Assembly (NCBI GenBank): GCA_905178155.1
Contig: CAJINV010000012.1
Location: 2,196,166-2,260,165, forward strand
Length of the DNA stretch: 64,000 bases
Direction of reading: 5' to 3'
Origin: Amoebophrya sp. A120
Lineage: Eukaryota; Protista; Dinoflagellata
Shown: positions 1,917-63,834 of the stretch, piece after piece
Layout of the letters: every line of letters starts with the position of its first letter
Numbering within the stretch: position 1 is the first letter of the stretch
Notes under the pieces: model-generated
What the model was told of the DNA's origin: nothing
Database searches by the model: none
What the model saw: the letters and a program-made list of their open reading frames with translations, nothing else
Made by a program: the position numbers and the translations under genes

Positions 1917-4900
1917 TCACGCCCGCCCCTGCGTCGCGATGTAGCAGTCGGTTAATTCCGCTAATTCTTTTGCGATCGCCTCCTGCTCCGGGTTCAAAAT
2001 CGCAGCTTCGTTCAAAATCGGCTGCCCGCCCGGACCGGTATTCTCGCTGAAGAACTTGTCCTCCCACCGAGCGAATTCCTGGTACTGGTCGGAGACGTAG
2101 CGGAGGATGTTTCGGGATTCCATCATGTCCTGGGTGGAAATACCGTCCTGCTCGTACACGTGGAGGTAGGAACGGGACTTGTACCTGATTTGCATGTCGA
2201 TGTCGTGTTTGTCATGCAGAATATGCTATCAGATCTCAATAATGGTACTCACCATGTGCATGACAAGTTTCCGTGCACTAGACAAGCATCATCATTAGCC
2301 ATCACATGATCTTCAAAAGCCGTATAATTCTACAGTGAGTCCCAGTTGGCGCAAATTCGGTCGAACGCTTCGTGGATTGCCGTTGTGTTGGACACAAACG
2401 TGACTGAATCCCCCTGGCTATCATATGTAAAAACGTCCCCACCCCATAGTCAAGATGGGATATCTCCTAGACAAACCGACGAGCTTCTGTTGCTGTGCAT
2501 GACAAGTTTGGCGTCGTAGTGTAATCTTGTTTAGCTAGCTCCAGCAGCATCACAGATCTAGCTTATCATTCTGATTCGAACATCACGAATTCCAGAACAC
2601 GACCAGGAAATGCTTCTCATGGGGTTCCGTATGAGAAACACTTTAACTTTTACCATGCAGATTGGCATGACAAGTATGGGGTGGGAATGTTTTTACATAG
2701 GATACTGGCTCTCGTGTGGCACGGCGCAAATGGAGGAGGAAATGCTGTTTGGGATCCAGTCCGGAAAGTAGTGGTCAAATCGGGAGCCCGGCTTGTGCAG
2801 ATTGTAAATGACTTCATCCACCTCGGAAGAGTAGATGTTGCCTCGAAACGCGGCGAAAGAGGCGAGGAATCGGGCCTTCAGAATACCTGATAGGTAGATT
2901 AAGATAGCATCGTGATGATCATGACGTACTGGTTGTACGACTGCAACACAAATTTTTGCATCCGGCAATATGATCACCTCCATGCGCATCTTCATATTTA
3001 AACAAACGAAACTCGCGACGAACGGCAAATTATACCTTCCCTCGGATCCCCCGGGTTGAGTGGGTCGCATTTAATGCAAACGTTGTCCTTGGAAATCATT
3101 TGTTGCGCCAAATCCAGGACGGAAAATTTCCTGTATTCCTTGTTCGCCGGGCTGGTTAGTGGTGCGAAGGAGGATATGGAAGCGTCAGGTTTGAAATCGT
3201 CAAAGTTGAAAGAATTTGTAACGCATAAAATGCATGACCCGAGGCACGTGTGTTGCAGAGCAGGCAAGTGAGGCTGATTGTAAGCCTGTTTGGGGTTACA
3301 GCTCGAGCTGCTAAAGTAGCATGAGAAAATCGCTCTTCTTTGCCTAAACACCATGACAGAGTGGATTTACGGACCGCCGAAATTTGTCTTGCGCCACTTA
3401 GAAACTGGGTCCCAACTGGCATCCATTTTATGCATGACAAATTTTTGTCGATTTCAACTCTGACACATCCATAGAGGAACAGAGAAAGTGGGCGTTTTTG
3501 AACGGGACGAGGTTGTATCAAATGCAAATACGTCCGGGTCTGGAGAAGTGGTGAACTTGTTATGCCAGCTTTGTATTCGTGGAAAATATGTATTGCAGAA
3601 CCAACAAAAGTCGCAGGCACTTTTGTCATGCAAAAACAAAAAGGCAGCTTCTCACGCGGATTGCGTATAAGAAAGCGCTCTGGAGAGTTCTTGTCATGCT
3701 GGGCTGCATTCGGAAATAGTTCCGTCATCCACATTTTGGCATCACAGGTTTCCAGACCCAGACATGTTTGCACTTGATAGGTTGGTCTGCATTTTTCTCA
3801 AATCCGCATCCAGGATACCAGGGAGGCGGAGACAGGAGGTGATACCTTTTGTTTAATAAATAAATGGCGTTTTTTGGGTTAAATTTTGTACCATGACAAG
3901 AATTTCTTCGACCGCACTACAAATACTTACCATCTACACCTAGATCTAGTCCATCTTTGAATTTATTTCCGAAATAAATACTTGTCAAGCAGCTGTACCC
4001 ACTTATCCTTACCTGTCATGCACAACCCCACGATGTTGTTCAGGTGACTCAGTTTTGGCACATCCACTTCACAGGTGTTTTGCACAATCTGCCCAAGTGC
4101 TGCATTGTCGTAGAGAAAGCACTGGTGGCAGTACTCTAGCAGATCCTGCATCCCCAGAGCGGCATTGTATCTGATAATGAATGTATGTATGAGTTAATTT
4201 TTTGTATTTTTTGTCAATCATGCAAGACGAGAGGTGTTTGTCATGCCATCCTCAGCATCAGAACCGGGTGCAAAAAAAAAAACAATACGGCTCCAGAATG
4301 ACGTCTGTAAGCCCGGGCGATGGCACCACGGTGAAGGACTGCAAAATGCACTTGCTTCCCTTGTCGAGGTAGTCGTATCTGTGATGCGTAGTTTGCATTT
4401 GACGGCACTTTGTCATGCATGGATCACCACTGCATTTTTTGCAACAGTAGCAGGAGCGTCATGCGAAGAAACTTTGTGATGCATAACTTCCGAAATAAAT
4501 ACAGTGTTTTCAGTAGCAGCCCTGTCAACCCGGATCCCGCACCGCCGCATATTGAGTGTGTGAATTGTACTCCTTGGAGGCACTCGCACTTCTCCACTTC
4601 TTTTCGTACGTTCTCGAGCACCTGGTGATGGAATAGTTCGTGGCGGTTTATTTCGGAGCATGAGCAACGGTTGTATTGTATACATGACAAAATCGAATCA
4701 CATTCACATTCAGCGTTGTGCATGACAAAGGACCACACTTCAAAGAGCGCTGACCTGATCCGCCAAGTCGGGCCCTTCTGTGTGAAAGGCTTTTGCGTAG
4801 CAGTTCCCTGATCCTTCGTCATTGCCAATTACGTTTTCTGGTCTGTACAGCCCTCCTAGTCCGTCACTCGTTATCTGCGCCAAATCGCTCATGTTGGTAT

Positions 4901-5321
4901 CTACCTGTTATCAACATGTTATGATTTTTCACATCAACCTTTGAACAATTTTACAACATCGAAAAAGCCACTGGATGAAGAGCGCGTCATCATCAAAGTC
5001 AAAGAAAATGAGTCCGCGTCAACATCCAAGGTTCCAGCCGTGTTCTAGTACTAGTATCGCCCTTGGGACGTAGCGGCCCGCGCTGCCCTCGTTGAAGAAG
5101 ACGTCAATGTGCTCTTGGTAGATGTCCCCTTCTTCCCCCGTGTACCTACCATTCATCTGTCCGCTGCCTTCGAAATTGATTTTGTGCTCGGACGCGATGT
5201 CCCGCCAGAACTCGTGGCCGATCGCATTTCCGCACTTCCCGACCTGAATGTGGATGATCTCACGCCCGGCGGCATGGCCGTGCTTCTTGGCCGGGTGCCC
5301 ACCCTTCTCTGGAGGAGGCAT
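1917..5321 (-). CDS. Divergent beta-like tubulin; 7 GT-AG introns plus 3 introner insertions
   Basis: Spliced translation gives [85 protein letters not shown] and YLHVY, colinear with tubulin. DLRK points to beta rather than alpha. Confidence 0.9.
2419..2704. mobile_element. Introner-like TIR element, family C
   Basis: Flanked by ctggc; ends tatcatatgtaaaaacgtcccc / ggggtgggaatgtttttacataggata; removal gives ESQ|GDSVTF. Confidence 0.9.
3175..3473. mobile_element. Introner-like TIR element, family B
   Basis: Flanked by gagga; ends tatggaagcgtcaggtttgaaatcg / cgatttcaactctgacacatccata; removal gives LCS|SFAPLT. Confidence 0.9.
3516..3779. mobile_element. Introner-like TIR element, family A
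   Basis: Flanked by ggttg; ends tatcaaatgcaaatacgtccgggtctgga / tccagacccagacatgtttgcacttgata; removal gives QTN|LVPF. Confidence 0.9.
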
Positions 5322-7125
5322 GGTTCTACTTGCGGGTGAAGTTGTGGATTGATTTCTTGACTTTACGATCTGCGGCGTCTCACACTGGTTTCGCTTTCGG
5401 CTCTCATGTACGTTGGGACACTTACTGCAGCTCAACGAGGTGCGAATTTTGGTTGACGCAAAATATCAGCTCAGAGCCTTTGTTCGTAGGAACTCAAAAA
5501 CAACGAACAAAAGCGAAACCAAAACAAGAAGACGACGACGACGAAAAAATAAAAGTCCGATGGACCCGAAAAACTGATGGATGAAGTAGAAGTACCGACA
5601 AAGGAGGAGCTAGGGCGCGGAGGTAGGAACCACAATCCTGGCACTCATTAACCCAGCCTCCCAAATGCTCACCACGAACAATTGTTGTGGCCGCTTAACA
5701 GATGAAAGAGCGCAGGAGCGGCTGACTACACTGCGACTGAGGCTACGGACTTTTGTTTTCCAAAGAATGAACCACGCGGCCAACATGCACCGCTATCAGT
5801 CTGACAGACTGCGAGCATGCTTCCAAACATGGCGGCCGATGGGGGAATAATGAGCAACATCACCAAGGGGCGGCCAAGGTGGAGCAAGACACTCACGCCG
5901 GGCGCCGCCAGCCGACCGGCAGTGCCTTCCTTGGGCTGGTCGGCCGGCGCGCGCACGAACGATCAAGGCGGGGTGGCGCGGGCGGGCGGAGTCGGCTGCC
6001 GAGCGCGCAACCCCGCCCTGGAGCCCAAGGAAGGCCGCGCCGAGCGGGGGGGGGCGCCCACCACGCTCGTGGCCCGGGGGCGTCTAACTACATACACTCC
6101 ACAGGCAGCAGCGCCGCCCCAAGCTAGCAAATCGGCCGCCTGGGAGAGGAGGCGCGGGCGCCTCTAGCTACGTGCCCCGGCGCCCGGCGGCACGCTGCGC
6201 CCAGCACGGGCGCGCCCGCAAATGCGGCCGGTGGCCACGCATCGCCCTGCCCCCGCCGGGAAGCCCCACGGGCGGACACGCAAAAAATAAAAAGGCCCGC
6301 GCGCGCCGTGCGTAGTTGTTTCGCGTCGGCCTCCTTGACGAAGGTAGCGAACCCAGGCGCCGGCCGCTCGGCTCGCGGCGCACGCGCGAAGACTTTGCGC
6401 GGCCGCCCCGCGGGCCGCCTTGCGGTACTAAAGTCGGGCGCCCTTTGCGGGACCGCTCGCGCGCGCCACGTTTTCCCCGAGGCGGCGGGGCGTGTGCAAG
6501 ATTATGGGCGCGAACATCGCGCCACTCGTGCCGCGTCGCAGAGGTTCTCGACTTGCGTCGCGATCAAATTGGCCACGCCCGGCAGGCCTCGAGAATCCAC
6601 CCGGGCCCGCCCCCCGTAGGCGGGGCGCTCCACGGGCGAGAGGCGCCAAACTGCGCCCGGTGGCAAGGGTGCACGGGCCCAAAAACGCGGGCGAAGGCGT
6701 CGCCCACCGAAAACGCGACAGCGAGAGCGCAAGCACTGGCGCCCCTCTCTTGGCATGCCGAGCTCTTCTCGTTGGATCTGGGCATAGTTCAGTTCCAACT
6801 ACATCACCAAATCTGTATGTGACACAAGAACACACGACACAACAACTTCCGTACTATTTGTCACAAGCTGGTGCAACTTGCGAGGTCCTCCGCTTATTTG
6901 CAAATTCAGCAGCATATTGAAACTTCTTCCGGCGCACACTAATTCATCAGCTCTCGTCTGCCATGGACAGTCATTGTTTGTAGAAAAATGTCGTGGCGGG
7001 CGCAAAAGGTAACCCAGCACACAAAAAGAACTTTCCAGTGAGTTTCCATCAAAAGTCGTGTCACCGTCATTGCAGACGCACGCAAATAAGCAGCAATTTT
7101 CCACTGCTACGGAAATCTTTCGCTT

Positions 7126-9913
7126 TCAAAAAAACACCCCTCTCTCCTCCCCTAGCGTTTTCCGGGCAATCAAGCTCGACAAATCTTCCTCCTTCGTTTT
7201 GTACTTTTTCCCACCTTCCCGTCTCTGCTGCTGCTGCCCCGCTAGAGTGAGCTGCTGCTGCTGACCCAACTTTTGTCGTTTGGCTTTTATCCTGCTTCTA
7301 TTTCCCGTCAAGTCCCCAGCTGCATCCTCGTCGGATTCATCTTCGGAACCACTTCTCCTATCTCCTCCCTTTACCAACTTTTCCGCTTTCAGCTTCTCCT
7401 GCACCTTGTCCCGGAGTTGTTCCGCTTTCGCAGAAAGTTCGGCGAGGTAGGACGAGGAGCTTGATGTCATCGTTGTGGTCGACGCAGATGTTCTTGAGCT
7501 GCCAGAAGCTCCTCCTACACCGGCGTTGTACGGAGGAGCAGCTGCTGAAGAAGAGGACGAAGTGGCTCCTGAAGATTTTTTCGCCGGCGCAAGCAGGTAC
7601 TCCATCAGATTCCCCTGCCATTTGGAGAAGCGTAGCCTCAAATAATTTCCGATCTGGAGGGTGAAGGAGGTGTTTTGTTGTAGATTCGCTTTACTGTGCT
7701 GTAGTACTGCGTCACCGTCTTTTTTCCGATTTGATGTTCTTGACGAGCTCTGCGTCTGCTCTACTGCTTGCCCGAGCACCACCTCCGTCGTTTTAGAAGT
7801 GTCGTCGAAGTCGACAACTTTGTCGTTGACCCGGATTTCGAACAAACTTCGTATCCTCTGTAGTTCTTGAGCTTCTTTTTCCTCGTCGTCACTGAAAGAC
7901 TCGTCGCTCCCAGCATTCTCGCTTTTGTCCTCGCTTTCGTCTTCGTCTACCTCTACGATGGTTTGCTTAATCTTGTTTTTCTTAGTCCTGCTTTTGCTGC
8001 TCCTTCCACCTGCAGCTCCAGGGGAGGTTTTCTTCCTTCTATCAGCACCCGTCCGACTGCTGCTTCTCGCAGAAGTACTAGATGATGCAGCTCCTGCGAC
8101 AAAGTTCTTCAATCTCACACTTCCATCCCTCGCAGACACGTCTACTCGCAACACCAATCTCGGCAATTTCGAGTACTGCAACTCCGGCAAGAGCATGGAG
8201 CCTATCAACACCGAGCCGTTTTGGTACACCCCGTTAGAATTCTTCCCGCCGACCCGGTTGTTCTTATACCTGCCCGCAAGAACGCCACCGCTGCTACCAT
8301 GATTCGGGAAGAAAAGAAACGGTGCTTCCTCCCTGCAAGTTTCCAGCTCTGCGAGAAACAGGTCGCTCTTTGCTTTCAAAGAAGTTTGACTGTTGTGGTA
8401 GTTTTTCTGCTGCCGCTGTTCGATCTGTTTCAAGTGCTTTTCGACAACAAATCGTGCTAGATAACTCGGCAGCTTTTTAAGCTCGTTCCTGACTTCCGGT
8501 GTCCACTTCTGTTTGCTAGCCTGGTCCTCCACAAATTTCCGGTTTTGCTCGTCGTTGGGATCATTCATGTGTTCCGGTCCTCGCCGGTCGTCGACACTTC
8601 TAGCAGCGCTTGGGCTTCTTGTCCCCGACGTGGTCCCAAACTGCACTGGCTCCCCAGTCAGGATGAACGGCATGCCGGCTTGGCCGGGAAGAAGATCCTC
8701 ATCGTCGAGTACTTCCTCTTCCTTCTCAATCGGAATAGTCGGGTCCGCTTCGCCGATTTCAATACCGAGCGCTTCCACGACTGCTTCGCCTGCCTGCCGG
8801 CTCATTTCATCGGCAGACCTTCTCTTATTTCGGGAAGATGCAGTCGCGCCGTGGTTCTTTGTTATTGTTATTGGGTTTGAACCTGTTGGCGTTTTGTTGT
8901 AAAACTTTTCCAAATCTTTCTGACTCACGTATTTGTTCTTGATCTTCTCCTTTTCATCCGCCGCCAGCTTCGCTTCCTGTTCTTGTTTCCTTTTCCGCAG
9001 CCAGTCTGCGGCGCTGGAGGTGGCGGCCGAATCGTCTTGCTGATCAGGAAGTCCTGCTGCTCCAGATAACGCTGCATTTTTCCCGATTATACCTGCGGCC
9101 CCTTGCTGCTGTTGATTCAACAGATTCGCCTGCTCTACTCCTGAGGATAATTGATGATTTGTCGCCCCGTAATTCGCGTCAGTCGGCGGAATTGGTATCC
9201 GTGTCCAAATTTCCGCGTTCACCGCGGCATTTCCGCTCTGCCAGATGGGCATCACATCCTGCGTTTCTTTCTCGAATTGAAACAAAACCCCGGAGTTCTG
9301 GTCCCAGATGAATAGCTGTTTCGTCTTCGATTCGAGGTAGTAGCATTTCGGAAAGGCGGTCGCGGATATGGGACTCTCAAGCGTTACACTCTCAGCTGTT
9401 ACATGAATTTGTCATGCAAAGCTACCATTATCATCCACGCGATCAAGCTGCTTCGCATGGTAAATGTGCGAAGGGCTAAGCAGCACCGAAATCTGTGCGG
9501 AATTTGTAATGCTAGAGGTGCAATTGTCCCCCTTTGACTTTTGCTATTCTTGCATTACAAATTCATGTGACAGTTGGGAATGTAACAATTGAGGGCCCCA
9601 TAGCGGATGTTTTTGGGTTGTGGTTCTCCGTGTCCACTTGCCAGCGGTCTATCGCATCCTTGTACAGCTCGAGGAGAGGATCTTCTTCCGCGTCAGGGGT
9701 TTGTTTTTTCGTGGCCTTTTTATCCAATTTGTTGCAACATCCAGGTCCTGTTTTATTTTTCTTTCCCTTATTGATGCCTTGAAATGGACCACGCCGTTGT
9801 TCCCTGCTGTCTTCATTTTCAACATCCGACAAACCCGAATCCTTGTCGCTGCTATCGTCGCTGTTGTTCGCGAAATCATCCAGAGAAACCGCGGAGAGCT
9901 GGGGGCCCGACAT
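7126..9913 (-). CDS. Hypothetical low-complexity protein, two exons
   Basis: ORFs 9563-9913 and 7126-9285 join in frame (PKTSA|TAFPKCYYLESK...LFQFEKE) after removing 9367-9602 plus one repeat. Confidence 0.8.
9367..9602. mobile_element. Introner-like TIR element, family E
   Basis: Flanked by gcgga; ends tatgggactctcaagcgttaca / tgtaacaattgagggccccata. Confidence 0.9.
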
Positions 9914-11703: not shown

Positions 11704-12489
11704 TTACACAAAGTCGTCATCGTCGCTTTGCTCCCCGGCGTAGACTACGTACTGCGGCTGCTGCTGGTATGCCACCGGCTGCGCTGGCTCCGCGTAGACG
11801 ATCTGTTTTTTGTATTTGTTTCATGATCTATTTCATTCTCATTTTTTGTCAACATGTAGAACCAATGCAAGAATGATCATGATGTTGACATCTACAACTA
11901 CTTGAAGTTCTTGTTGTATACATCACGCAACACAAATTTCTACCTCTTCCTCATAGACCGGGCCTCTGTAGCAGCACCAGACGGGAATAGCAATGGCGAA
12001 GATGATGATCAACAGGATGAGCAGGATCCAGAGCCAGAGCAACCGCAACCCATAGTTTGGATTCTCGTCAACCGGATGGCAGTGCGTGTTGAGGAACCTA
12101 TCCCGGTAGCAGTATATGCATTGCAAACGTATCGCACTCGTACTATTATCATTAATTGCAATCATGTATGACAAATCTTGTCCTTAAGGTAAAACAGCAT
12201 GACAGATGCCAGCTCTCATGCTGAGCAAATTTGTAATGCAATTTATACAACTAGTACGATGGATAATTTTGTAATGCATACAGTAGCAGTAGACGCCGCC
12301 AATCCACGTGTACCACCCCGCGATTGCTTGGTCGGCCAGCAGCAGCAGCGACAGTGCGGCTGCTGGTGCGGTGAGCAAGTTCTTGCTCGTCCCTGCACCT
12401 GGGGCTCTTCGGCTATTTTTGCCCTGCGTCCTCATGTTGGAAAGAGAGGAAGTCGCAAGAGCAGTCGTGGAGGTAGTGGCAGGAGACAT
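11704..12489 (-). CDS. Small membrane protein (signal-like segment, Cys-rich ectodomain, one TM helix)
   Basis: MSPATT...LLLLADQAIAGWYTWIGGVYCYC|YRDRF...LLWLWILLILLIIIFAIAIPVWCCY...EEE, then a GT-AG intron, then IVYAEPAQ...DDDFV*. Confidence 0.75.
12115..12280. mobile_element. Introner-like TIR element, family D
   Basis: Flanked by cagta; ends tatgcattgcaaa / ttttgtaatgcata. Confidence 0.88.
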
Positions 12490-21600: not shown

Positions 21601-22394
21601 CATGCGTAATTAGCAGCAAGAAGCTCTCAAAAAATCTGTGATGCTACTAGCACCAGCATCACAAACCTGTCGGGTCATGCAAAATGTGCATGACAAGCCC
21701 CGTCTCTTCCAGACCCGGAGACTTTTACAACCCATACGTCAGAGAAGCACACGCTCCGCAAGTCCAGGTCCACCGGACACTTGTTGATCAACTTCGCGGC
21801 TACTTGCGCAGAGCTCGTTGGGCCGAACCAGGTCCCCGGCGGTTTTGAGAGTTTCTCGTTTCCGACCTTGCAGAAGTTGTGAATGCTGAAGGGCGCTGTG
21901 GGGCGGTCGTAGAACAAGGAAACGAAATCCTCCTCGTCGATCTCATCTTCCACGTCAGACATGTCCTCCTCCATTTGCTTCTTCGAATTTTGCTTCTTCA
22001 CGAAGATGCTGTGGTCCACCCGCCGGACCGCCTCCCCGACCATCATCTGCATCACGCGGATCATGCAGCCGAAACCCGCGTCGCCGGAGATTTGATAGCC
22101 GTCGTTGTCGTAAAGATCCTCGATGTTGTAACGGTAGGGGAACACGACGCGCGTTTGAAACGCTTTCCGAAATCGCTCCGCGTCTATTTTCGACGAAGCT
22201 CCCTGTTCGGGGGAATTCCCGTCGTTCAGCGCATCCATGAAATCAAATTCTTTCCCGAGAAACTCGACAATCACCAGTCGGTCTGACGTGCCCCCGGCGC
22301 AGAAGGCGACGACGTCAAACCCCCGACCGCCCACCGCCTTTTTCGTCCGCTCCCAGACGCCACGAGAAGCGGCCGCGATCCAACCAAAAACCAT
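18692..22394 (-). CDS. ATG4: ATG4-like cysteine protease (peptidase C54), split by 7 introners
   Basis: Motifs FPYR, GDAGFGCMIRVMQM (catalytic Cys), APFSIHNF, PGTWFGP, SAHWFTG, LLYFDPH (Asp/His) and NSSLCLGF appear in the expected order. Confidence 0.88.
18929..19237. mobile_element. Introner-like TIR element, family B (inverted relative to 3175 and 35599)
   Basis: Flanks tcggt/tcagc; family B TIR. Confidence 0.87.
19273..19422. mobile_element. Introner-like TIR element, family D
   Basis: Flanks ggagc/ggaac; ends tatcctgtgcaaaagtatcg / cgatacttttgcagttcata. Confidence 0.88.
20047..20317. mobile_element. Introner-like TIR element, family A
   Basis: Flanked by aagcc; removal gives QKA|LQRNRK. 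Confidence 0.9.
20403..20681. mobile_element. Introner-like TIR element, family C, eroded left end
   Basis: tgagtaaaaacgtccccac / gtggggatgtttttactcaggata; flanks degenerate (aactg/aagta); frame DPY|FGSE is restored. Confidence 0.82.
20919..21186. mobile_element. Introner-like TIR element, family A
   Basis: Flanked by cagtg; family A TIR. Confidence 0.9.
21225..21387. mobile_element. Introner-like TIR element, family D
   Basis: Flanked by gattt; ends tatcctgtgcaaaag / cttttgcacaggata. Confidence 0.92.
21474..21736. mobile_element. Introner-like TIR element, family A
   Basis: Flanked by cgtca; removal gives CFSD|GPVYED. Confidence 0.9.
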
Positions 22395-52089: not shown

Positions 52090-54189
52090 TCATCGAACAA
52101 GAAACGGGTTTATATTTGTTGGTGACGAGAACAAATTCTCATCCTCATCAGAATCCTCTGCGTAGTGGTCTTTTCTAATCCGATCGCTTTTGCTATTGCT
52201 CCCATCCCTTCTATCCCCACCACGACCTGACGATTTTCTATTGGCTCCACGACCAGCTGCACTTAGGGACATTTTGACTTTTCCCTTATTCTGCATTCTC
52301 TGATACAGTTTTTCGTAGGTCATTTCCTATCCTGAGTGAAAACGTCCCCACACCAGAGTTGTCATGCAAAAGTGCAATGAGAAGAGCATTTGTATTTATG
52401 CGCAGCTCCATGAGAGGCATTTCCAATCGTGTTTTGGAATCAATCTGTAATGCTGGAAACAGGATGCGAAAGTGGCTTTCTCATTCGGCTTCTCTTGCCA
52501 ACACTGCAGAGGAAAAGTTGTCATGCACAGCTCCCAAAACTTGGAGATTTGTGTTGCTAGAGTCCCAACTTGACAACTATGGGCAGCTGGGGATGTTGTT
52601 ACTCAGGATATTTCCAACAGTTTCACCATCGCTAAGGACTCATCACCCGCGCCTATCAAACAAAAAAAAGTTCGTCACGATCACTCATGCGCATTTTTGC
52701 AATACAAAATTTTCTGTCATGCGTAAAAATGCATCACATTCAAACTTCCTGAGGGATTTCCCTAGTGTTTCTGCAATACAGGGGAAAGCTGTGATGCTAA
52801 AAAAATTTGTAATGCAAAACCCGCAAGTTAGTGACAGTGACAAACTTTTTTCTCTCCATAGCGCCACTGCGGTGTTTAATACTTCTACCCTGATGTTGAT
52901 CGTGCCTACCCTTCCTTTCTCTGTAAGAATCCGTATCTCTACTTGCGCCGGCCATTCTTTCCTCCTCCACGGCTGCTTGTCGCTCCGCTTCCACCACTTT
53001 TTTCTTCTCTTTTCTTATCTGTTGCTCGATTTTCACGAGTTTTTCCTCGAAAAAGCTCCGCTGGTCGTTTAATTCCTGTTGGAGCAACTCTTTTTCCTGT
53101 TCGTGATAAGCTATCTCGTGCGTTTCCTGAAACTTTTCCTCCGCTTCTTGTTCTTTTGCTCGCAAGGTCTGTTCCCTTTGGTCTAACTCTTCTTCTAACT
53201 GCTTTTTCAACAGTCTCTGCGTCTCCTTTTCCTCGAAAAGTTCTTTTTGTTTCTGGAGCTCCTTCCTCCTTTCTTGGTCGATCTTCCTCGATTGAGAGGA
53301 AAAAGGTCGTGGTCCTGGTGCACCAGAATTATGGAGGTCGTACTCGTAGTGCTTGTTGTGCCCATGCTCGTAGTCGTGCTGGTGGTCGTGCCCATGATGA
53401 TGATAGTGATGATTTCGACTACCTCGATCACGTTCTCCCGGAGCCGCATGTCCATGTTGATGACCATGACCACCACTTGTACCCTTACTCGTCATTTTTT
53501 CCAGCTGAATTCTCTGCAACTGCTGCAGTTCCTGCAACTCCAAGCGCTGCTGCAAAATTTCCTCTTCCAGCTTCATTCTCTCGACCTTCTGCTCCTCTAA
53601 ACGGTGTTCCTCATTTCTCGCGATGTCGATCTTCTGTAGCAAATCCGTGATTTCCCGTTTTCCCCGCTCGATCGTGTCGGTTAAAACACCCACGATCTGC
53701 TTCGACGCGACCTCTTCCTTGGTAGGTTGCGGGATAGTATCCTGTACAAAAGTATCGCACAGCACTCGTATTGCAATCATCCATTACAAATTTTGTTCTT
53801 AATGCAAATCCGCATTACAAATTTCATATTTCTCATGCTGGGAAAATTTGTAATGCATTTATACGAGTACGATGCTTTTGCAATTCATAGATAGAGGGAT
53901 TCGGCAGCGTGGAGAGCGGATCGCGCTTTGATGTTGCAGCTGATGTCGACGTGGTGGAACCAGCAGACCTTGGCCCGCGGCCCCTCGATAGAGAACTAGA
54001 AGCTTCTCCTGCGCCGCCGCTGTTAGTTGTTGAAAACACCCCTTCAGAAGTAAAAACGTCCTCCTCATCGATCCCGCCTAGTATGGTGGTGTCGCCTTCC
54101 ACTTCGTCGAGAAAGCTGAGCCGCTTGGACAAAGTCGTGTTCTTCGTATCTGTTCTACTACCTCCAGTCAACAAGCTGCTCGCCGACAT
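52090..54189 (-). CDS. Hypothetical coiled-coil protein with His-rich tract; 3 introners; 5' end uncertain because it abuts the retroelement
   Basis: ORF segments 53833-54189, 52797-53780 and 52090-52323 are separated by TIR elements. Confidence 0.7.
52328..52610. mobile_element. Introner-like TIR element, family C
   Basis: Flanked by tttcc; family C TIR. Confidence 0.9.
52654..52860. mobile_element. Introner-like TIR element, family G
   Basis: Flanked by gcgcc; aaaaaagttcgtcacgatcact / agtgacagtgacaaactttttt. Confidence 0.88.
53738..53889. mobile_element. Introner-like TIR element, family D
   Basis: Flanked by gatag; family D TIR. Confidence 0.9.
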
Positions 54190-54897
54190 GACATCGAAAT
54201 CGTTGTAACTATTATGCAGGTGCCAATGCCCATACTGTATGGTCTTCGTCCGTTCACGGACCGATGGATGCCTACAGCGGCCCCCGCCCCCGAAGGGGGG
54301 CAAGGTCGCCGTTTGGTGGTGCGCGAGCACACACCCGAACGCTGAAACGCACCGCGAGCGTCCTTCAGAAGTGGCGGGGCGGGCAGTGGGCCTCACCCCT
54401 AGAGCACACATAGCCTTCGGCTCTGATGTGAGCTAGACTATACTCCCAATCGTGCTGCCTGAGGCCCGCCCTCCCGCCAGTTGTGATGCCTTTGCGGGGC
54501 TATGGTAGTGCCATACTTTCAGAACACTGTGGCAACTGTGGGGCCACGGAATCGTCCGGGACGCATGGTTTACTGCATGCGGTTTCATTCATTTGGGTAA
54601 GCGTGTGTGCCTTCAACCGATGTTGAATTGCATCACTCATCTGCGGATTAGAATGAAACGAATCATCATTCGAATCTGATGGGGATCGAGATTAGAAAGA
54701 ATCGCTCAAATGAATCAGACGCAGGGAGAGAAATGGGTATTCGATCGAAGAAATATATATTTTTTGAAAAGAATCTGGACGATGGAACTCATCCCACGAT
54801 AATACTTCTTGGAATTCAGAAACAGAACAGCTTGATTTGTCTGTCTGAGGTTCTTCTACCTGAGCCTTGTTTGACTGCAGTTCGCAATACAGCACTT

Positions 54898-55997
54898 TCA
54901 GAAACACAACACACAGGCTGAGGTCCGGGCTTGTCGCTTTTGGATCACGAGAGAGACGTGGTCAGCGAGGTCTAAAAAGTAGCGCATTTCCGTTGTGATC
55001 GCAAGAAAGTCTTCTGCTAGCGCTCGCGAGTCAGTGTTGCTGAGTCTCGACGCATGTTCTTTCAGTAGATCTCGTGTGCACTGCAGTCGTTTTTTGGCAT
55101 CCTCCAGGAGACGACCGATTACATCCTCCTCCACCGGTGGCACAGCTGCCAGGCACCACGGCGACATGCAGTGTTTTACTACACGGTAGGTCGGTGTGTC
55201 GGTGCCTGTAATGTTCTTTCGCTTATGCATGGTTATGGAGGGGGGCATGGAGCTAGAAGCGAAGTTCTGCATCATCACTAAGACATCACAAAATAGGGAG
55301 AAGCTATACCTTTTTGGTGTGGGGTGGGTGCTTGTGGTGTGTGTTGTGCCGTTGGTGCCGGTGGTGATCGGGCGGGCGCCAAATTACCTGTGTTTCGAGT
55401 TTGAGCTGATCGAATGCATCGCATGTGACTGCGCGCATACCAAAACACAGGCAACAGCAGGTCAAGACCTGAGAAAAAATAAGAGTACTTCTTCTCGGTG
55501 TTCTGTTTCTTGGCGTCATCGCTGGTCCCGATGGTTGTCTTCGAGGAGGAGGATGAAGACGCGGACGTCGAGGACGAGGGGGCAGAGTCACGGTCGTTGC
55601 AGAAGAGAATGAAGTCAACGGCTTCCCGGCCGTCGGTCCAGGGGTAGAGCCGGTCGGGCTTGGTCACCTGATCGTCGTAGCGGGCACGGGACGCGGAGAG
55701 CCGCGCGAGCGTGGTGTCGAGGCACTCCTCTTCGGACAGGCATTTCCGTAGGAATATCTTGCTGGCGCGCTCATTGAGTGCTTTCTTCAATTTCTCATCT
55801 TTGCACGCAGAGATAGCCTCGCGATACGAGTCTCCCCATAGTTTATCGCTCTGCGCCTGGACACAAACAGACGCATCATGTGAGATTATTTTCTGCATGG
55901 AGACGTAGTTGCAAAAGAAGATGGTGGCACTCTTTTCAAAATCCTGAAAGAACTCTTCTGGCGTCATCGGACTGCTTTCCTTCTTAAAGGGCAACAT
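54898..55997 (-). CDS. Unknown ORF(s) downstream of YR, probably part of the retroelement
   Basis: ATG-initiated 239-aa ORF abutting a 126-aa ORF; no recognisable domain. Confidence 0.4.
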
Positions 55998-56148
55998 GGC
56001 TACTACGTGGTCCTATGATGTGTCGCTGTGCTGTGGTCCCTGCTCAAGAACAAGACAGAGCATTTTTTGAAAGAAAAAGCGAAGCGCACTCGAAGTCGGC
56101 GCTGTTCGACAGAAACTGACCTCTTTTTTTGAAAAAATTTCCTTTCCA

Positions 56149-57281
56149 TCAATATTCATCTTTGTCGATCGGTTGACGAAGTTCTTCTGTGAGATAGTTG
56201 AGGGCTTCTTTGGCCACAAATAGTGGTGCGTCTAGATGATCCTTGTAGTCAAGTGTGTACCCACGAAAGCTGGCCATCCAGTTGTTGCTGCTCCAATCGA
56301 AATGGAGAGAAGTGCGCTTCTGTGTCTCATTTGGAACTTGATTGAGCTCTTTGATGTTGCAACGTGCCACTGCCTTGCGTACCACTAACGCAAGCGCTCT
56401 TCTGGGGCCATGTCCTGTGGTTCCTGCGTGTTTGGCCGCTAGCGCTAGCTTGGCGGCGGTGTAGGGGAGTGGCATGCCGCTGAGTCTCGCTGGGACGTAG
56501 GAGGGAAATTGGACCTGCGATACCGTTGAGCTGCACTTGGTTGTCACCAACGCGGTCGCCCACTTTGGGTCGTCTGTGTTGGGCTTGACGATGTCGATTG
56601 ACTGCATTGAGGCAGCTCGCAGTCCGGAGCAGACCCAGAAGCGCGCAATGTTCTTGTCCATTTGGTTGAGCAGTTTCACCCTGGCCGCTGTCACCGGTTT
56701 GGCTTTTGCGGCAGAGAATTGCTCCCGTAGCCGATTGACGGAGTTGGTGAGCAGCTTCATGTTGTCAGTGACTTCCATTTTGCCTGTTGTTGATTCAGAG
56801 GATGCGTCTGCTCACGAGTTGTCGAATGATGCAAGAAACATAGCGACGCAAGGTGCCACAAAAAGAAAGAAAAAGCACCTATTTGCTTTAGTCTGGAGAT
56901 GACCGCGCAGGTGTAATTTGCTTGGCTTCGGCTCATGTCCATCTCGATGAGGAACTCCGAGAAGCTGTAAATTTCTCGCAAGTAGGTGAACGCGGGGCAC
57001 TGGAGGCGCGTCATCGGTTCGCCGTATTTCGGGATGTAAATTCGGTCGCTGGGTTTGGTGGTGGTTAATGAATTCCACCAGCTAACGAACGACGTCCAAT
57101 GAGCTTCCCGCTGCTTGACAGATTGATGGGGAAAGCTCGCCTCCATCGGCCACACCCAGAGCTGATCTTGATACTCGAGGCGTGCATCGGGGTCCCTTGC
57201 TATGTTTTTAGCCCGTGGTGGATTTGCTGACGAGGGCTTCCTCGTACTTGAGCTTGAAGTTTTGGATGCGGGTCGCGGCAT
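56149..57281 (-). CDS. Tyrosine recombinase with a predicted 71-bp GT-AG intron (56808-56878)
   Basis: Catalytic motifs SGLRAAS, HGPRR and HFDW...FRGY; the splice ata g|gtgc...gagcag|ac joins the two ORFs as KQI-D-ASSEST. Confidence 0.8.
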
Positions 57282-59690
57282 TGTCGATCGCTTGCCTGAG
57301 TAATTCACCGTATTCAGCGGACCTGTTATCGGCGGATGTTAGCTTAAAGAGTGCCTGCATCAGAGATAGTCGCGTCAGCGCGTCCGCTGGATTGCGCTTT
57401 GTGTTGATGTAGTGAATGACTGGAGTAAATTCCAGCCCCCTCCATAGTTGAGCGATCATCGAAGACAAGACTGACCCGGCGACAGCCGATGATGCTCCGC
57501 TCCGCGAGTGATAGCGTATGCCGAGCCACAGTTGTCGATGTGGCTGATTCCTCTCGCATGTCGGATGTAGTTTTGCCAGAACTCTCCTGCAAGATAGACT
57601 GCAAGCAGTTCGCACACAAAAATCTTCTCGCCACGTAGCCCAGCTGGAAGCTGGGTGCTGCCTGGAGGACCGTTCGGGCCATGCGTGAAGTGGTACGAGA
57701 AACAGAGAGGAACTGGCTCATCGGCTGTGAAGATGACGCCCCCAACATATACATCGCTGCCTTCTGCTGCTGCGTCCGTGAAGATCTCTACCGTCGCGGC
57801 TCCATTCAGGCGCGCCGCAAGAGATAGCGGCTTACTTTCCTTGATAGCTTGCTTCGCCTCTTCAACCATGGCTGCTACTGCTAGCACGTGCGAATCGGTG
57901 CCCTGCGTGATGAGGTTGGAGATGACTCGCGGGGCTGTGTACTTGGCTAGTAGGCGCACGGCGGGACTGTGGTCTAGGCATCTTCTGGCGAAGAGGTGAT
58001 TGCAGGTGACTCCTAGTGCTTGCTGTACGTCGAGGAGGGCACGCGATCTGTCGAGGATCGCGCTCTGCATCCGTGTGACTGTGGTCACTGCTTTGGCGAC
58101 TTTTTCTGGCGCCATTGCGAATGAGACGTCGTCGGCGGAGCTGGTGGCGTCGACGCCTAGCACATCGGTGGGCACATTCCGTTGCGCTATGATGTCTTTC
58201 TTGTCGGCCGATGCGAGTCCGAGGAGGCCGAGAAACTGCTTGACTGCCTGGTGCGCTGCTGGGGCCATCCATTCAGGGGTGAACAGAGTGACGTCGTCCA
58301 CATAGCAGAGGCAGCTGATGCCGAGGCATCGCTCTATCATTGCTTCCACGTAGCCGCTGATTGCTCCGCAGTAATGGCAAACCGAATGGAGATTACCAAA
58401 GGACATGGCATTGCTGGTGAAGAATTTATAGCGTTGCTCCTTTGGGTTCCACGCTGCCATGTAGTATTCGCTGGGCTCGTTGTTGGGGAGTTGGAAATAT
58501 GCCTGCCATTTGTCAATTTTGCTGATGAATGGCGTAAAGCCACCTACTCGCTTGGTGCGTCCTTTGATGTTGACGCCCACCATTTTCCAATCCTGCCAGT
58601 TGCCGGATCGCTTCCTCTCCTGCTCCAGTTGTTCCTTGAGGTGCTTCTTGAGTTCGACCAGGGGCGGGGCCCGTCCAGGGCAGAGGCATGCGCGGCGCCT
58701 TTCAATGCAGACTGGGAGGTGGGGCATCGTCATGTGTTCTCCGTAGGCCGACGCCACTTTGTTCGCGTGTTTTTCGTTGGCGATTCCTCTTATTTTGGAG
58801 AAGTGCTGCTTCTCGTGGTCCCATCTTTGGCCGATGTGGAATATGGGGATGACTGTTTTCCCTAGCATCTGCTCCGGTGTTGCATCGGTTCGCATGAGAA
58901 CAGGGGCAGAGTTTGGATCGTCTGGGTTGAATATGTTGCCCTGGAGCTCGTCCCAGCCGCGCTGGAGCATCTCCGGCGTCTCGAAGGTGTACGGAGTTGT
59001 TCTTGTGAAATTGAGCTTGGCAAGGGCGTCGTCAATTTCTTCCTGCGTAGTGGGGCAATTTAGGTAGCGGAGGGTCTCGTCGGGGGTCATGTCCTTGGCT
59101 CCGTGCCAGATTTTGTATAGCTCAATCGGACCGCGGTGCGGGAGTCCCGTGTTGAGGCAGCCTTTGGGACCATATACCCGATCTGCCATCGTCTCGAGCG
59201 GTGGTTCGTCTTCCGGACCGGGCGGCGCCAGCTGATCGAGTACTACTTTGTTGACCGTGATGGCGTGCTGGAGGTAGTCGTGGCGTTTAGCGAGGTTCCA
59301 CCACATGAGAGGCTGTTTGATATATGTCTTGGTCTTGCATATGTCTGGCCGATTCCGCGCGTAGAATTCGCGTAGTGCTTGCACATGAGGCACCTTGGCC
59401 CGCTCTGCCTCATATTGCGCGAGGAGATCCTGTTGCTCGGGTCGCACCGAGTTGCTGCGGACGTCTTCCAGGGCCATCTGGAGGCGCTCCACCCTTTCCA
59501 GTTTTTCCTGTGGTGGGTGGTGGTATGCGTTGCCTATGAAGGGGGCTGAGACATGCATAGTAGGTCTTCTGATTACCAACATGGGCGCTATATTTATACC
59601 TGATTGGACGGCGCGGCGTATTTGGCTAGGTCTGCAATGACTTCCTCCGGGGTCGGGGCAAGAAGCGACATGGTAACTGCAGCGAGACAC
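57208..59690 (-). pseudogene. Reverse transcriptase plus RNase H, frameshifted by a 5-bp duplication at 57494-57503
   Basis: RT motifs KIDKWQAYFQLP, AMSFG, CYVDD, VLGV; RNase H motifs IFTDAA, CELLAV, HIDN, and NPADALTR in the shifted frame. Confidence 0.85.
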
Positions 59691-59991
59691 GAGAGGACGA
59701 GGTGTAGCATTTTCATTTGCTTTTGGGGTAGAGTACTAGTGTAAATGGCTAGCTGCTGCTGCTATTTGCAATTGTTGGCGCTTCGACACAGGTGCAACGA
59801 GGTCTGGGCTCGTGGATCCGATAGCGAGCGTGTAACAGAACTGCATTTTCCGAATGGCCACGACACATGATTGATTGCTGGGAACACTTGCTCACTTTGT
59901 CTTTTTACAAAAAACCACAGCCAATGGCGGAGGTTGCAAACAACTGTGCTGCGCGCGAAGACGCTGGTGATTTTGTGTTCTAATGGGGTAT

Positions 59992-62900
59992 TTACGCCTT
60001 CACCTTGTACAGAGCAGCAATCTTTTTGGTTTCTTTATGTCGTGACTCGCATGGTCGAGAAGCTGCGACTTTGCCTTTGCCCTTGACGTGCTTAAATTTG
60101 GGTCGACATTGGATCAACTGTTCGCTGCCATCCTTGGTTGTGCGTGTCAAGCCCATTTCTCTAGCTACATCGCACATGCACACGCCAGGTTGGCGTAGTC
60201 GTACTTTTGGATCTGGTCCATCAAAACTATCAGCTATTTGACAGATAGCCTGGCTCTCAATTTCATGAAAAGTGCTGGCTCGAGCTTCGCCTCGTTCTTT
60301 CAGCGATTTCTTCTTCTCCTGTTCCGCCTTTTTCTTGGCTTGTTTCTTGGCTTTCTGCTCCCGCAGCCGCTCCGCTTTGGTTTTAGCCGTGGTGGTTGTG
60401 GTCGTAGTCGTAGCAGCTTTTGTTGTTGTAGTAGACGCTGCTGCGGTGTTGCTCACTGATGTACCGAAGGAGAAATCCGAGGTGAAGGACGGGGGGACGC
60501 CGCCTGCGTAGCCCGTGCCACAGTGAATGCGTAGGCGTTGCAACGACTTCACATATTGCGCCGGGGGCGGCTTGCTCGATGGGTTCCCTAGCAGCAAGAA
60601 GTTGATGATCTCGTGAAATGCGACCACCGGGTTGATCTTCACCCAGGTCCCCGCTTGGGGAATTTTGCAGATTGGCGTCCGCATGCGGTGGCATTGCTCG
60701 CAATCCTGGTTCCAGAGCTTAAACACGTAAGGCGTTAGCAGTACAATCGAGGCGACACTGAAGTCTTTTAACGTTTTCGTCAATGTCGGCTCATCTGCGA
60801 CTTCTTGTCCAGTTACTTGAGACGTTGAGATAACCGCTTGCTTGCACTGCTGGAGCTCCTTTTTGGCCGTGGAGAGGAGTTCATACGTGACGCCGAAGAA
60901 CGATGGTTGTAGTCCAGCACCGCTGACCGCTTGGCGGAGAGACAGGGCGACGAGGATGCTGATCATCTGGTCTTTGTGCTGGGCGCCGATAATCGGGGCA
61001 GTCCACATGTCTTCTACCTTCGTTTTCGCTTGTGCGCGCGTATAGGGCACGTCGAGGGCCGGCTGATTCATCGCGATTGCCACTAGTGCTTGTTTCTGAG
61101 TCCGCTCATCGTTGTCGTCTCCGGAAATGAGAGAGGAGCCTTCGTGCAATATGTGGAATATGTTGCTGACCTTTGCATATTTTTCCGCGGTCCAAGAGCG
61201 GTGACCGTCGACAACTTGCATGAGGTGGCAGAACAGTACTGGGCTGAGTTTCACTGCCACATTGCCCACCGTCACGTAGAAGTGCGCGGAGTCAGCTTCA
61301 AAGTGCGGGGTCTTGTTGTTGTAGTGGTCGTAGTTTATGCCGATTGCTTCTTTGTAATATCTCCGGTTGGTGAGACGGCGCCGCTCCCACCCTTGGCGCC
61401 GAGTCTGTAGCTGACTCTGCTCGACCAGTAAGCGCGGTGGTGAGGCGGTTGATCGGATCCTGATCATCCTGCTCATTGTTCCGTCGTTGGCGGTTGCGAT
61501 CGTCACGCCGGCGCCGACTGGGGGACTGGGCTGGTGACTGCGATGCCGACGATATGCCTATGGGTGATCGCTGTCGCTGTCTTGGTCGCCGATCCCTGGC
61601 GAATGAGAATGGATCGCCTCCTCCTTTTCCAGCTCCTTTGGAACTCGTTTGCTGGAGCAAGGTCGTATTTTGTACTGGCGAGAAGGAGGATCTCCTGTAC
61701 CGATCGACCGGGTCGCCGGGCGACACAGATCGGCTGCAGGTGCGATGAGATGGGAGGATGCTGGCGGCTAGTTGGACTGGCCTGCTGTGTGGAGCCGCTG
61801 CTCTGCTTCCGCGTCCTCTGCTGTCTCTTCTGCGTTGTCGTCTTCCGCGACTGTCGCCTCTGCTGTCGCGTCGTCGCCGGTTGGGCGCCGTGCCCGTGGT
61901 TTGTTCTAACACGGTGGGCACTGCTGGCGCCGCGGTCGAGGAGGCCTGCGGGGGGTCCGTCTTTTTGCGCCGTGTGGTAGCAGCGGCGGTTTTTCGAGGC
62001 TGGGATGTGGACCGCGCGGCTGTTGATGTACGCTTCTTAGCCGGTTTCTTCGCCGATGGCTCCTCTTTCTCGGATTGGGCAGTAGATTCTGCTGCGCTGG
62101 TGGCATTGGTTTCTTCTGCTTCGATGTAGTCGTCCGAGAGTTCCTCGGCATCATCCTCTTCGTCCTCGTCCTCGGACGTTGTTGCTTCGACCTGATCAAA
62201 GGGGACTTCTTTGCGCTGGTCCAGATGGATGGGATGGAGATCGTCGTAGTGCTGCATGGCCTGCATTTCGTTCTCCACCAGAAGTTTCCGGAGCAGGTCA
62301 TTTTGTTTTGTGAACTCAGCGCCTGCTGGCTTGCAATGCTTCGGCTGGTAATACCTTTTTCGGTTGGTCTGCCCCAGGTGCACGGCCGCCCTGTGGAAGT
62401 GCCTCGCGTGCTCCCTCATCGTCCGGCTGTTGAGATCCTTGTGTAGCGGCCATATGATGCGGCAGAATTCCAGCCAGTCGAGGTACATCAGGCACAAAGT
62501 TGCTTCCAACTGCATGGGGCTTTCCGGAAATTGGTGGAGCTCATCAATGACGGCGCCTTGCATCGGCACTTGCGCATATCGCGCGAGGCGTCCCTCTATG
62601 TGTTCTGCTAGCCAGTTCGGGACACATCCTGCTCGTTTTGCATGATGCCAGGCGTATCGTACTGAGTGGGCTGGGAGTTTGAGGTCTTTCGGTATCGCCG
62701 TCATTAGCGTTAGTGACGTCTGGTCTCTCGCCGGGGCGGAAAAGCAAACTGCGTCGCTCAGTATGTCGCCGCGTGCCACGCTGTGATTAGTGTGTGATGG
62801 TTGATATTGCAATAGTGTGCGCTCAGAGGTCTGTTCTCATTAGTGGCGTTCGCATGACACGGATCTGCATGACAGACAAAGAGGAGAGAGAGGGGAGGGG

Positions 62901-63834
62901 GGGGATGTACCTTTTCCAGTATCGGTCGCTGCAATGCTTGCTCGTGAACGCGTGCTCAAGTGCGTCATCACCTGGGTGCTGTGGATAGGTGAAGTCGGGT
63001 CGTAGTGTCGCTCCTGTCAAAAGTGCTAATCCCGCATTCTTCGGATAGCATCTTACTCCCCAGTCCCCAGCGTCAAGGGACGCTGGGCACCTGTCTTTGT
63101 GGACGTTGATGAACAATTTGGATTGCAGGTCTCGGAGAGCCGACGCCGATGGTGCCCGGTCAAGTTGCACTTGTACTAATTCGAATCGACGCATTATTTC
63201 TTGGAACGGGAGTCCACTGCTAATTAAGTGTGATGCTATAGCCATCAGCTCCTTTTGGTACTCGTTCTTGCAGTCGGCCCCAGTAGTCCATGCGGTGGCT
63301 GTCGACGTAGACGTGCTGTGACCAGCTGAAACCTGTTGAGCTTCGATCGCCGACTGGGTCAATTTTCAACGGCGGGACCTTGAGGGGTTGCGTCGTCGGT
63401 TTGTCGGCTGCAATGGCGTTCTTCAGGATGCTTCGCGGGAGTACCTCCGCTGTTGTGCGCTCCTCCGCTTTCGGCACCGGTGGGAGTGCTGCCTCGGGTT
63501 GTGCGAAGACAGAGGATGTTGCTGGCTGTTTATCCGCTGGGGGAGCCGCATGCTTCTTCGGCCGTCCTCTGGCCTTCTTGGACGCGTCTTCTTGGTCCGA
63601 GCTTTTGCTGCGTGATCGCTTGTTGCCTGTGCTGGCTTTTTCTCCTGTGTCCGCCTTTTTGCTGCGAGCAGTTTTTTTCTTTTCGGTATTGGCCTTGCTT
63701 GTCGCTGGCTTGGCCTCCTCATCCTTGCCTTTTTGCTGGGAGGTACTGCTGGTCGCTGTGTTCTTTGCTGTGTGGTCGCTTTTGTTGCTGCTTTGTCTGC
63801 CGAACAGGTCGAGCTCGTCGTCCTGCGGCGCCAA
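59992..63834 (-). CDS. Gag-like/ORF1 region of the retroelement, with a predicted intron (62781-62910) and two apparent 1-bp frameshifts
   Basis: Four consecutive long minus-strand ORFs upstream of RT; frameshifts near 63362 and 61430. Confidence 0.55.

Follow-up and report, generated by a model that had tools for sequence, protein, structure and literature searches.

A ten-base-pair interior motif shared by introners and a part of the GT-AG introns of Amoebophrya sp. A120

The DNA analysed here is a 64,000-nucleotide (nt) stretch of the dinoflagellate Amoebophrya sp. A120 (contig CAJINV010000012.1), referred to below as the window, which holds 11 annotated genes, all on the minus strand, and a retroelement. 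All 11 genes read open once 42 elements with terminal inverted repeats (TIRs), one copy of the 5-bp duplication being kept for each, and 14 GT-AG introns are removed. The elements fit the introners of Farhat et al. in organism, inverted repeats, direct repeats, hairpin and size (PMC7789003); the text available from that study describes the non-canonical introns of A120 as about 240 nt long, with inverted repeats made of TAT, seven free bases and AAA, direct repeats of 3–5 nt and a hairpin. It also reports that more than 60% of the introns of A120 and A25 are spliced without canonical ends, the mechanism and the mobiliser being stated as open, and that U1 small nuclear RNA was not detected in either strain (PMC7789003).

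A sequence-only reading of the window had claimed that one motif occurs in every introner family, on both strands, and in ordinary GT-AG introns as well. The core of this motif is the 10-bp sequence GCATNACARR (best form GCATGACAAA), which is a real, apparently undescribed cis-element of the known introner system.

Introns of the window and distribution of the motif

The TIR introners of the window, by family, are as follows.

2419–2704 (−): TIR introner, family A
20403–20681 (−): TIR introner, family A, one end decayed
44021–44299 (−): TIR introner, family A
52328–52610 (−): TIR introner, family A; removed with one 5-bp duplication
3175–3473 (−): TIR introner, family B
18929–19237 (−): TIR introner, family B
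35599–35915 (−): TIR introner, family B
3516–3779 (−): TIR introner, family C
15385–15650 (−): TIR introner, family C
16713–16965 (−): TIR introner, family C, six sites
20047–20317 (−): TIR introner, family C, variant sites only
20919–21186 (−): TIR introner, family C
21474–21736 (−): TIR introner, family C
24137–24381 (−): TIR introner, family C, variant sites only
29009–29245 (−): TIR introner, family C, opposite orientation
30785–31036 (−): TIR introner, family C
39875–40139 (−): TIR introner, family C
43699–43960 (−): TIR introner, family C, opposite orientation
46301–46552 (−): TIR introner, family C; RNA contig skips 257 nt
9367–9602 (−): TIR introner, family D
47601–47885 (−): TIR introner, family D
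48622–48859 (−): TIR introner, family D
12115–12280 (−): TIR introner, family E (family about 150 nt)
19273–19422 (−): TIR introner, family E; strong RNA hairpin (z −7.8)
21225–21387 (−): TIR introner, family E
30552–30698 (−): TIR introner, family E
31720–31875 (−): TIR introner, family E
43500–43649 (−): TIR introner, family E
44660–44800 (−): TIR introner, family E; RNA contig skips 146 nt
44898–45063 (−): TIR introner, family E; RNA contig skips 171 nt
48919–49104 (−): TIR introner, family E
50051–50241 (−): TIR introner, family E
53738–53889 (−): TIR introner, family E; RNA contig skips 157 nt
16507–16662 (−): TIR introner, family F
45159–45315 (−): TIR introner, family F; RNA contig skips 162 nt
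24464–24785 (−): TIR introner, family G
25604–25926 (−): TIR introner, family G, variant sites only
29365–29675 (−): TIR introner, family G
29966–30155 (−): old single TIR introner, one interior site
33556–33671 (−): short and old TIR introner with a single exact site, 45 nt from the end
38705–38917 (−): TIR introner, single in window
52654–52860 (−): TIR introner, single in window; RNA contig skips 212 nt

The GT-AG introns are the following; numbers in brackets are matrix scores unless they are positions, and the P numbers denote protein calls or models.

4905–5051 (−): tubulin-like gene; no motif; position matches start of AT5 model P0072
4622–4754 (−): tubulin-like gene; exact motif at 4720, further site 38 nt off; position shared with P0049
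4379–4502 (−): tubulin-like gene; two exact copies, at 4410 and 4474; same position in P0048 (82% identical) but not in P0049
4171–4288 (−): tubulin-like gene; one exact copy, at 4238; same position in P0049, P0060 and P0063
3846–4012 (−): tubulin-like gene; all sites weak, the best at 8.6; same position in P0037, P0048, P0060 and P0073
2887–3035 (−): tubulin-like gene; variant site GCAACACAA (14.7); position shared with P0050
2185–2333 (−): tubulin-like gene; exact motifs at 2209 and 2258; position shared with P0042
11803–11943 (−): small membrane-protein gene; variant site (13.5)
25012–25173 (−): RBM22-like gene; exact site at 25070 and a further one 34 nt away at 25104
25369–25541 (−): RBM22-like gene; sites at 25408 (exact) and 25480
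26070–26340 (−): RBM22-like gene; exact motif at 26293; single-copy DNA, inside unbroken DNA contig
28517–28684 (−): coiled-coil gene; no motif
30308–30459 (−): coiled-coil gene; no motif
31460–31623 (−): coiled-coil gene; site with one mismatch (11.4); RNA contig piece ending at 31457
62781–62910 (−): predicted, in retroelement; two inexact sites (62852, 62867)

Seven gaps in contigs, from runs of one study that we guess to be RNA, consist of an element plus 5 nt removed without GT-AG. The unbroken DNA contig spans 25899–28019, and the RNA contig piece stops at 31457.

Across the whole window, GCATNACAA has 108 matches where 2.69 are expected. Ninety-six fall in the 9,672 nt of the 42 elements and 9 in the 2,218 nt of the 14 GT-AG introns; the exons hold 2 in 28,257 nt, the retroelement outside its predicted introns 1 in 9,288 nt, and the intergenic DNA, untranslated regions included, none in 14,092 nt. 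The motif is thus as rare in exons and intergenic DNA as it had seemed by eye, with 2 and 0 exact copies. Exact copies occur in 38 of 42 elements and, as claimed, on both strands (53 sense, 43 antisense). With a scoring matrix built from element sites alone, in which a score of 9 or more counts as a hit, all 42 elements reach 15 or more, and hits are found in 10/14 GT-AG introns, 0/88 intergenic tiles and 2/152 exon tiles. All 11 element families (clusters) of the window carry the motif. Half of the GT-AG introns (7/14) have an exact copy, three of the other seven have a variant site and four have none; the seven tubulin and RBM22 introns named earlier each have an exact copy, one RBM22 intron start being corrected from 26071 to 26070. 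We found no enrichment upstream of genes of the kind expected for promoter sites: there are 0 copies in the 14 kb of intergenic DNA here, and 0.14 per kb in the second assembly described below.

The two copies claimed for the retroelement intron 62781–62910 are inexact: they read GCATGACAC (62852) and GCATGACAG (62867), not GCATNACAA. No RNA contigs lie over this predicted intron, and the other three predicted retroelement introns contain no site scoring 9 or more. The argument that a motif-bearing retroelement intron favours a functional mark therefore carries little weight, resting as it does on inexact copies in one of four predicted introns.

Replication in a second assembly and layout inside introners

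As a stand-in for genome-wide counts, we used 433 kb of a second metagenome assembly (prefix JACKZZ01), chosen by a triple-motif pattern and hence biased to element-rich, motif-rich loci; 61 long loci were merged into 53 segments, while the 13 long loci that belonged to other assemblies were set aside, as were 70 short ones. The same element families as in the window are present at 70–94% identity. An element finder blind to the interior motif, which demanded a duplication match of at least 3/5, recovered 42/42 window elements; of the 421 elements that it gave in the second assembly, 400 carry GCATNACAR. A gene model retrained without the window returned 14/14 window GT-AG introns exactly together with 16 false calls, which a filter on flank length and frame disruption would remove, as judged by inspection. 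After filtering, 114 GT-AG introns were predicted, without RNA, of which 21 show element homology and 93 do not.

The enrichment over intergenic background, set beforehand as a refuting test, holds in both samples. In the second assembly, 33/93 predicted GT-AG introns have a matrix hit against 18/267 intergenic tiles (p = 2 × 10⁻¹⁰), several of the intergenic hits sitting among runs of elements in what may be missed genes. Exact sites occur at 1.09 per kb in predicted GT-AG introns, 0.14 in intergenic DNA and 0.03 in exons, and the 28 sites in 19.6 kb of GT-AG introns compare with a mean of 0.72 and a maximum of 5 for permuted 9-mers. The claim that the motif marks ordinary GT-AG introns accordingly holds in the window (exact copy in 7/14, matrix hit in 10/14) but is not general, since the second assembly has 19/93 and 33/93, respectively. 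Similarly, of the 31 clusters into which the pooled 462 elements fall, 27 carry the motif and 4, each single-copy, do not.

No second species with the motif was found in a metagenome scan that covered 20 of 64 parts. The non-Amoebophrya loci were rejected as tandem repeats or chance (L060 and L130 by sequence, six others by spacing), as were all 33 loci of a scan of viral contigs. L060 is an unrelated contig in which a long inverted repeat (1573–1660, 4507–4594) contains motif-containing 21-nt tandem units, probably a different foldback element.

The claim that the families have unrelated TIRs is right from about base 11 inward; the outer ends share TAT-N7-AAA (among 84 ends, T 81, A 81 and T 81 at bases 1–3, and A 71, 68 and 82 at bases 11–13) and a 5-bp target duplication, perfect in 337/462 elements. 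Bases 4–10 of the TIR draw on a small common set of words; the word at one end varies independently of that at the other, and the same words turn up in different families, as though ends had been exchanged (for example, 30552–30698 and 43699–43960). Behind both TIRs lie arrays of the motif, mostly three to six sites per element in both orientations. A same-strand pair at 30–34 nt is found in 14 of the 21 clusters that have such a pair. The nearest outward-pointing site lies 35–38 nt from the end in 10/22 clusters and 46–48 nt in 6/22, and outward-pointing sites are phased to the ends (Rayleigh p = 0.0014 at period 10.5, in a broad test in which any period from 9 to 12 gives p below 0.01); for inward-pointing sites, phasing to element ends is absent. 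A 16-nt lattice in the window spacings was rejected, being unsupported for end distances (p = 0.17). The TIR end itself is a degenerate copy of the motif in register (TAT-N7-AAA against T-GCATNAC-AAA), and 10/84 ends score 9 or more.

Five elements of 0.8–1.2 kb have unrelated interiors and keep their sites near the ends. These long introners (L038:2129–2941, L048:433–1641, L066:6184–6998, L085:4448–5573 and L088:8429–9576), some with their own repeats, resemble cargo-bearing miniature inverted-repeat transposable elements (MITEs). By inspection, no transposase open reading frame (ORF) was seen in the five, and no autonomous element was found.

In a second comparison fixed in advance, the core changes less than its neighbours: private differences, taken at columns where the three nearest relatives agree in 391/462 elements, amount to 2.8% in the core, 6.4% in matched interior and 4.8% at TIR bases 15–30, and the order holds without CpG. 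Target-duplication mismatch had no value as a proxy for age, with interior rates alike (6.5 against 6.6%). This conservation is not proof of host selection, because transposing lineages would also keep a site that they need.

Much of this layout would suit a subterminal site for a transposase or shared transposase domain, with GT-AG copies brought in by elements that either inserted into those introns or turned into them, and kept because a domesticated or still-bound transposase now serves the host. Such a reading would account for the phasing to element ends, the subterminal arrays in long elements, the degenerate in-register copy in the TIR end, and the TAT ends and 5-bp duplication common to all families; in GT-AG introns it gains from element-like pair spacing, element-rich loci and element-to-GT-AG intermediates (see below). 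We nevertheless consider it rather unlikely. The motif is constant while inner TIRs vary by family, so that the family specificity with a cognate TIR expected of subterminal repeats is not seen (27/31 clusters with different inner TIRs share the motif); the GT-AG copies favour a middle G (32/40, against 47% in elements); the five long elements lack a visible transposase ORF; insertions into 2.2 kb of old introns would be needed, yet there are none in 14 kb of intergenic DNA; and the available text of Farhat et al. reports no transposase in A120 (PMC7789003).

The motif in GT-AG introns

When the window and the second assembly are pooled, 43/107 element-free GT-AG introns carry a site. Orientation is even (31:34, binomial p = 0.80), without the sense-strand bias expected of an RNA splicing enhancer. 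Nor does the motif behave as a core splice signal, which would be found in all introns, on the sense strand and at a fixed distance: it occurs in 43/107, in both orientations and at free distance. Short introns are richest: 12/17 of those under 140 nt have a site, against 1/9 of those over 250 nt (trend p = 0.0007). Of same-strand pairs, 7/13 lie 31–35 nt apart (p = 1 × 10⁻⁴). Overall, the proposed checks of strand symmetry and spacing gave an even orientation and copies 31–33 bp apart.

Among the 40 exact 7-base cores in GT-AG introns, bases 9 and 10 are purines in 37 and 34, respectively; base 11 is T in only 9, against 73% in elements (58% family-weighted). Because the purines are kept and base 11 is random, the boundary of conservation is sharp. 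In the window GT-AG introns, the excess is 11.6 for exact copies (one of which is the 4379 acceptor itself) and 3.9 for one-mismatch copies, no worse than in elements. With the motif masked, 42/43 motif-bearing introns show no homology to elements in searches with 22 family profiles; the core is intact in these element-free introns, whereas a transposase-bound repeat would be expected to be lost or to decay there. Even introns that miss the threshold outscore intergenic tiles (p = 9 × 10⁻⁵), and they show an excess of half-sites, among them TTTGTG and TGATGCA. Direct repeats at the junctions are alike in motif-bearing and motif-free introns (2.6 against 2.4 nt). A shortage of branch-like YTRAY in motif-bearing introns (3/43 against 19/64) was distrusted, since a 5′ control is equally high in motif-free introns. 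Separately, TCACAG ends many predicted GT-AG introns (L036–L107), and the acceptor of intron 4379–4502 (4379–4387) is itself a motif variant, GCATCACAG.

A reading on RNA was also weighed, in which paired copies would extend the hairpin, or a protein or small RNA would recognise either orientation by way of the central CATG. Element RNA does show pairing between mirror-image copies, two elements folding far better than shuffles (z −3.7 and −7.8), and the G form is pseudo-palindromic and contains UGCAUG. In GT-AG introns, by contrast, 13/22 neighbouring pairs are same-strand, many sites are single, and five motif-bearing introns fold no better than shuffles (z −1.1 to 0.6). Together with the 10-bp periodic phasing, a property of DNA, this makes a reading on RNA very unlikely.

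The age of the tubulin introns bears on where the GT-AG copies came from. The tubulin-like gene (coding sequence 5321–1917, minus strand) encodes a spliced protein of 517 amino acids that equals A120 model GSA120T00007227001 except for two insertions (13 residues) in the model. Its identity is 91.9% with the orthologue of A25 and 95.1% with that of AT5, whose introns are reported to be nearly all canonical. Exon edges in relatives were inferred from alignment stops and the junction residue in short protein calls from their DNA. All seven tubulin GT-AG positions match an exon edge in at least one relative (P0063 is 74% identical, P0048 82%); P0049 reads through the 4379 position, and the 3846 position is an edge in four fragments. 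None of the three tubulin introner positions is broken in relatives, being read through by P0050, P0037 and P0040. The GT-AG introns at these shared positions therefore did not arise from A120 introners by conversion in place, in line with the published figure of 98.6% canonical introns at positions shared by A25 and A120 (PMC7789003). A search for RBM22 exons gave two distant fragments that are silent on the A120 intron positions.

Three side observations concern this gene. In P0049, residues 1–26, the orthologue of intron 4622–4754, form an intron-derived leader that holds MHHE and LSC, peptides that the motif could encode in each orientation; we treat this as a lead only. The public A120 model P0071 has extra segments of 11 and 2 residues at GT-AG intron 2185–2333 and introner 3175–3473, likely mis-set splice sites. 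The divergent tubulin (1917–5321) has dinoflagellate relatives at 60–67% identity and is seen as a distinct family.

These results bear directly on the suggestion that the GT-AG copies are neutral relics of decayed introners, the form in which the earlier alternative of a transposase site surviving in old introners fails, though element-to-GT-AG intermediates exist. Those intermediates, the excess of one-mismatch copies, the link to element density and the incomplete family library all lean towards relics. Relics are improbable, however, because the core and the pair spacing have been kept beside a random next base, homology is absent and the tubulin positions are shared: the ratio of 11.6:3.9 corresponds to a divergence of a few percent, yet TIR, duplication and homology are all gone; conservation drops sharply at base 11; and positions are shared with relatives 74–82% identical in protein. 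We regard this explanation as already contradicted and scarcely credible.

A host DNA-binding protein could instead serve chromatin architecture, polymerase pausing or insertion targeting in gene bodies, and not splicing. The free position relative to splice sites, the clustering by locus and the lack of the motif in most GT-AG introns would fit this, as would the near confinement of elements to coding sequence (42/42 in the window, with a chance of about 5 × 10⁻⁹, and 374/417 in predicted exons of the second assembly). The dependence on intron length (12/17 against 1/9) suggests a link to intron processing, and the motif is absent from the 14 kb of intergenic DNA even with untranslated regions included, so that a role apart from splicing appears distinctly unlikely.

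Interpretation and relation to known systems

We hold it to be an evenly balanced proposition that GCATNACARR is the site of a putative host protein that reads double-stranded DNA and helps to mark introns for co-transcriptional splicing. A host DNA-binding factor is the best reading, and its role in splicing we infer. Strand symmetry and helical spacing argue for a protein on double-stranded DNA; the sharing of the site by families with different inner TIRs and by element-free old introns argues for a host-encoded reader; and intron confinement, length dependence and the reported lack of U1 in A120 point to a role in intron recognition. Such a protein would bind in pairs about three helical turns apart and, once bound, would help mark intron DNA for splicing during transcription. 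Introners would carry three to six copies because binding aids assembly of the end complex, allows non-canonical hairpin introns to be spliced, or does both, and short GT-AG introns would keep one or two as an enhancer, not an obligatory signal. In a bolder form, possible though doubtful, A120 would define introns partly on DNA, with a putative protein on phased GCATGACAAA sites recruiting or timing a U1-less spliceosome, and introners would have spread as three to six sites license excision of a hairpin-ended insert without GT-AG ends. Thus, of the earlier idea of an intron-defining signal read by a host factor, possibly on DNA, the DNA-read host factor agrees with the even orientation, the helical spacing and the 10-bp core kept at shared positions, but 'intron-defining' is too strong, because about 60% of GT-AG introns have no good site and the distance to splice sites is free.

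Several observations weigh against a host protein that aids splicing. No site scoring 9 or more is present in 64/107 GT-AG introns, so the motif is not required for GT-AG splicing; there is no fixed distance to donor or acceptor (13–187 nt from the donor); and motif-bearing introns do not have weaker splice sites than the others (donor score 5.7 against 5.1). Some decay must occur, since in second-assembly GT-AG introns one-mismatch copies are as much in excess as exact ones (26 against 24). Motif-bearing introns cluster by locus (p = 0.035) and sit in element-rich loci (p = 0.005), and about 5 of the 21 homology-bearing predicted GT-AG introns hold element fragments with sites (L061, L066, L073, L083 and L102); elements can therefore deliver the motif. 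The homology test is weak, recovering 23/40, 15/40 and 2/40 elements mutated by 15, 25 and 35%, and its family library covers few of the published 1,954 families. Within elements, mismatches of 6.5% between the two duplication copies bracket the post-insertion rate at 3–6%, so that the conservation of the core (2.8%) cannot be told apart from selection on transposing lineages. The families may share deep ancestry and hence not be fully independent, and a transposase would account just as well for the end phasing and the degenerate in-register TIR copy.

Subterminal repeats are a feature of TIR DNA transposons and MITEs (hAT, CACTA, Mutator), and host factors have sites in transposon ends (IHF in Tn10 and Mu, IRBP in the P element). 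Like these, the A120 motif is a short repeated site that lies behind the TIR in both orientations, is helically phased with respect to the end and is conserved above the interior. It differs in that families whose inner TIRs are unlike have it in common, that GT-AG introns free of elements keep it at old positions, and that the elements are removed from RNA. The RBFOX element UGCAUG is an intronic splicing enhancer. Like it, the A120 motif is intron-restricted, optional and flexible in position, and the G form contains TGCATG when T precedes; unlike it, the motif has no strand bias, a 10-bp core with a free middle base in elements, and helical spacing.

Nearly the same letters occur on the reverse strand (TTTGTNATGC) in the SOX2–OCT4 composite element, also a bipartite double-stranded site, for which the available text gives a HOXB1 probe containing TTTGTCATGC (PMC4551974). 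That element is an animal enhancer, and we see no evidence for SOX or POU proteins here; the likeness is most likely coincidence, useful as a model of a two-part site only. The apicomplexan AP2 site TGCATGCA is likewise non-coding and CATG-centred, belongs to a sister lineage and has TGCATG in common with the G form, but is a true palindrome studied upstream of genes, whereas the A120 motif is absent from intergenic DNA.

The available text of Farhat et al. describes terminal repeats only for A120 introners, with no description of an interior motif, its phasing or its sharing with canonical introns (PMC7789003). More broadly, the running text, apart from figures and logos, of the available literature on Amoebophrya and dinoflagellate introns yielded no description of the motif; the one candidate, GCATGACA in an Amoebophrya paper, is a primer for rapid amplification of cDNA ends. 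Both kinds of intron would thus have, for the first time, an interior cis-signal in common: a single 10-bp site at defined spacing. If its reader were a host DNA-binding protein aiding splicing, introns would be marked on DNA; if it were a transposase domain, it would point to the missing mobiliser and its domestication.

An Rfam search of the window gave 0 matches at gathering score. The retroelement lies beyond about position 54,240 (54240–64000), with four predicted GT-AG introns and a reverse transcriptase ORF at 57459–59735, whose RVT_1 match is below the curated cut-off; no relative was found in the 433 kb of the second assembly. Its layout suggests the tyrosine-recombinase type, a Pfam search giving no recombinase match. 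Two GC-rich (65%) intergenic stretches without the motif, 1–1000 and 5800–6800, contain long imperfect inverted repeats.

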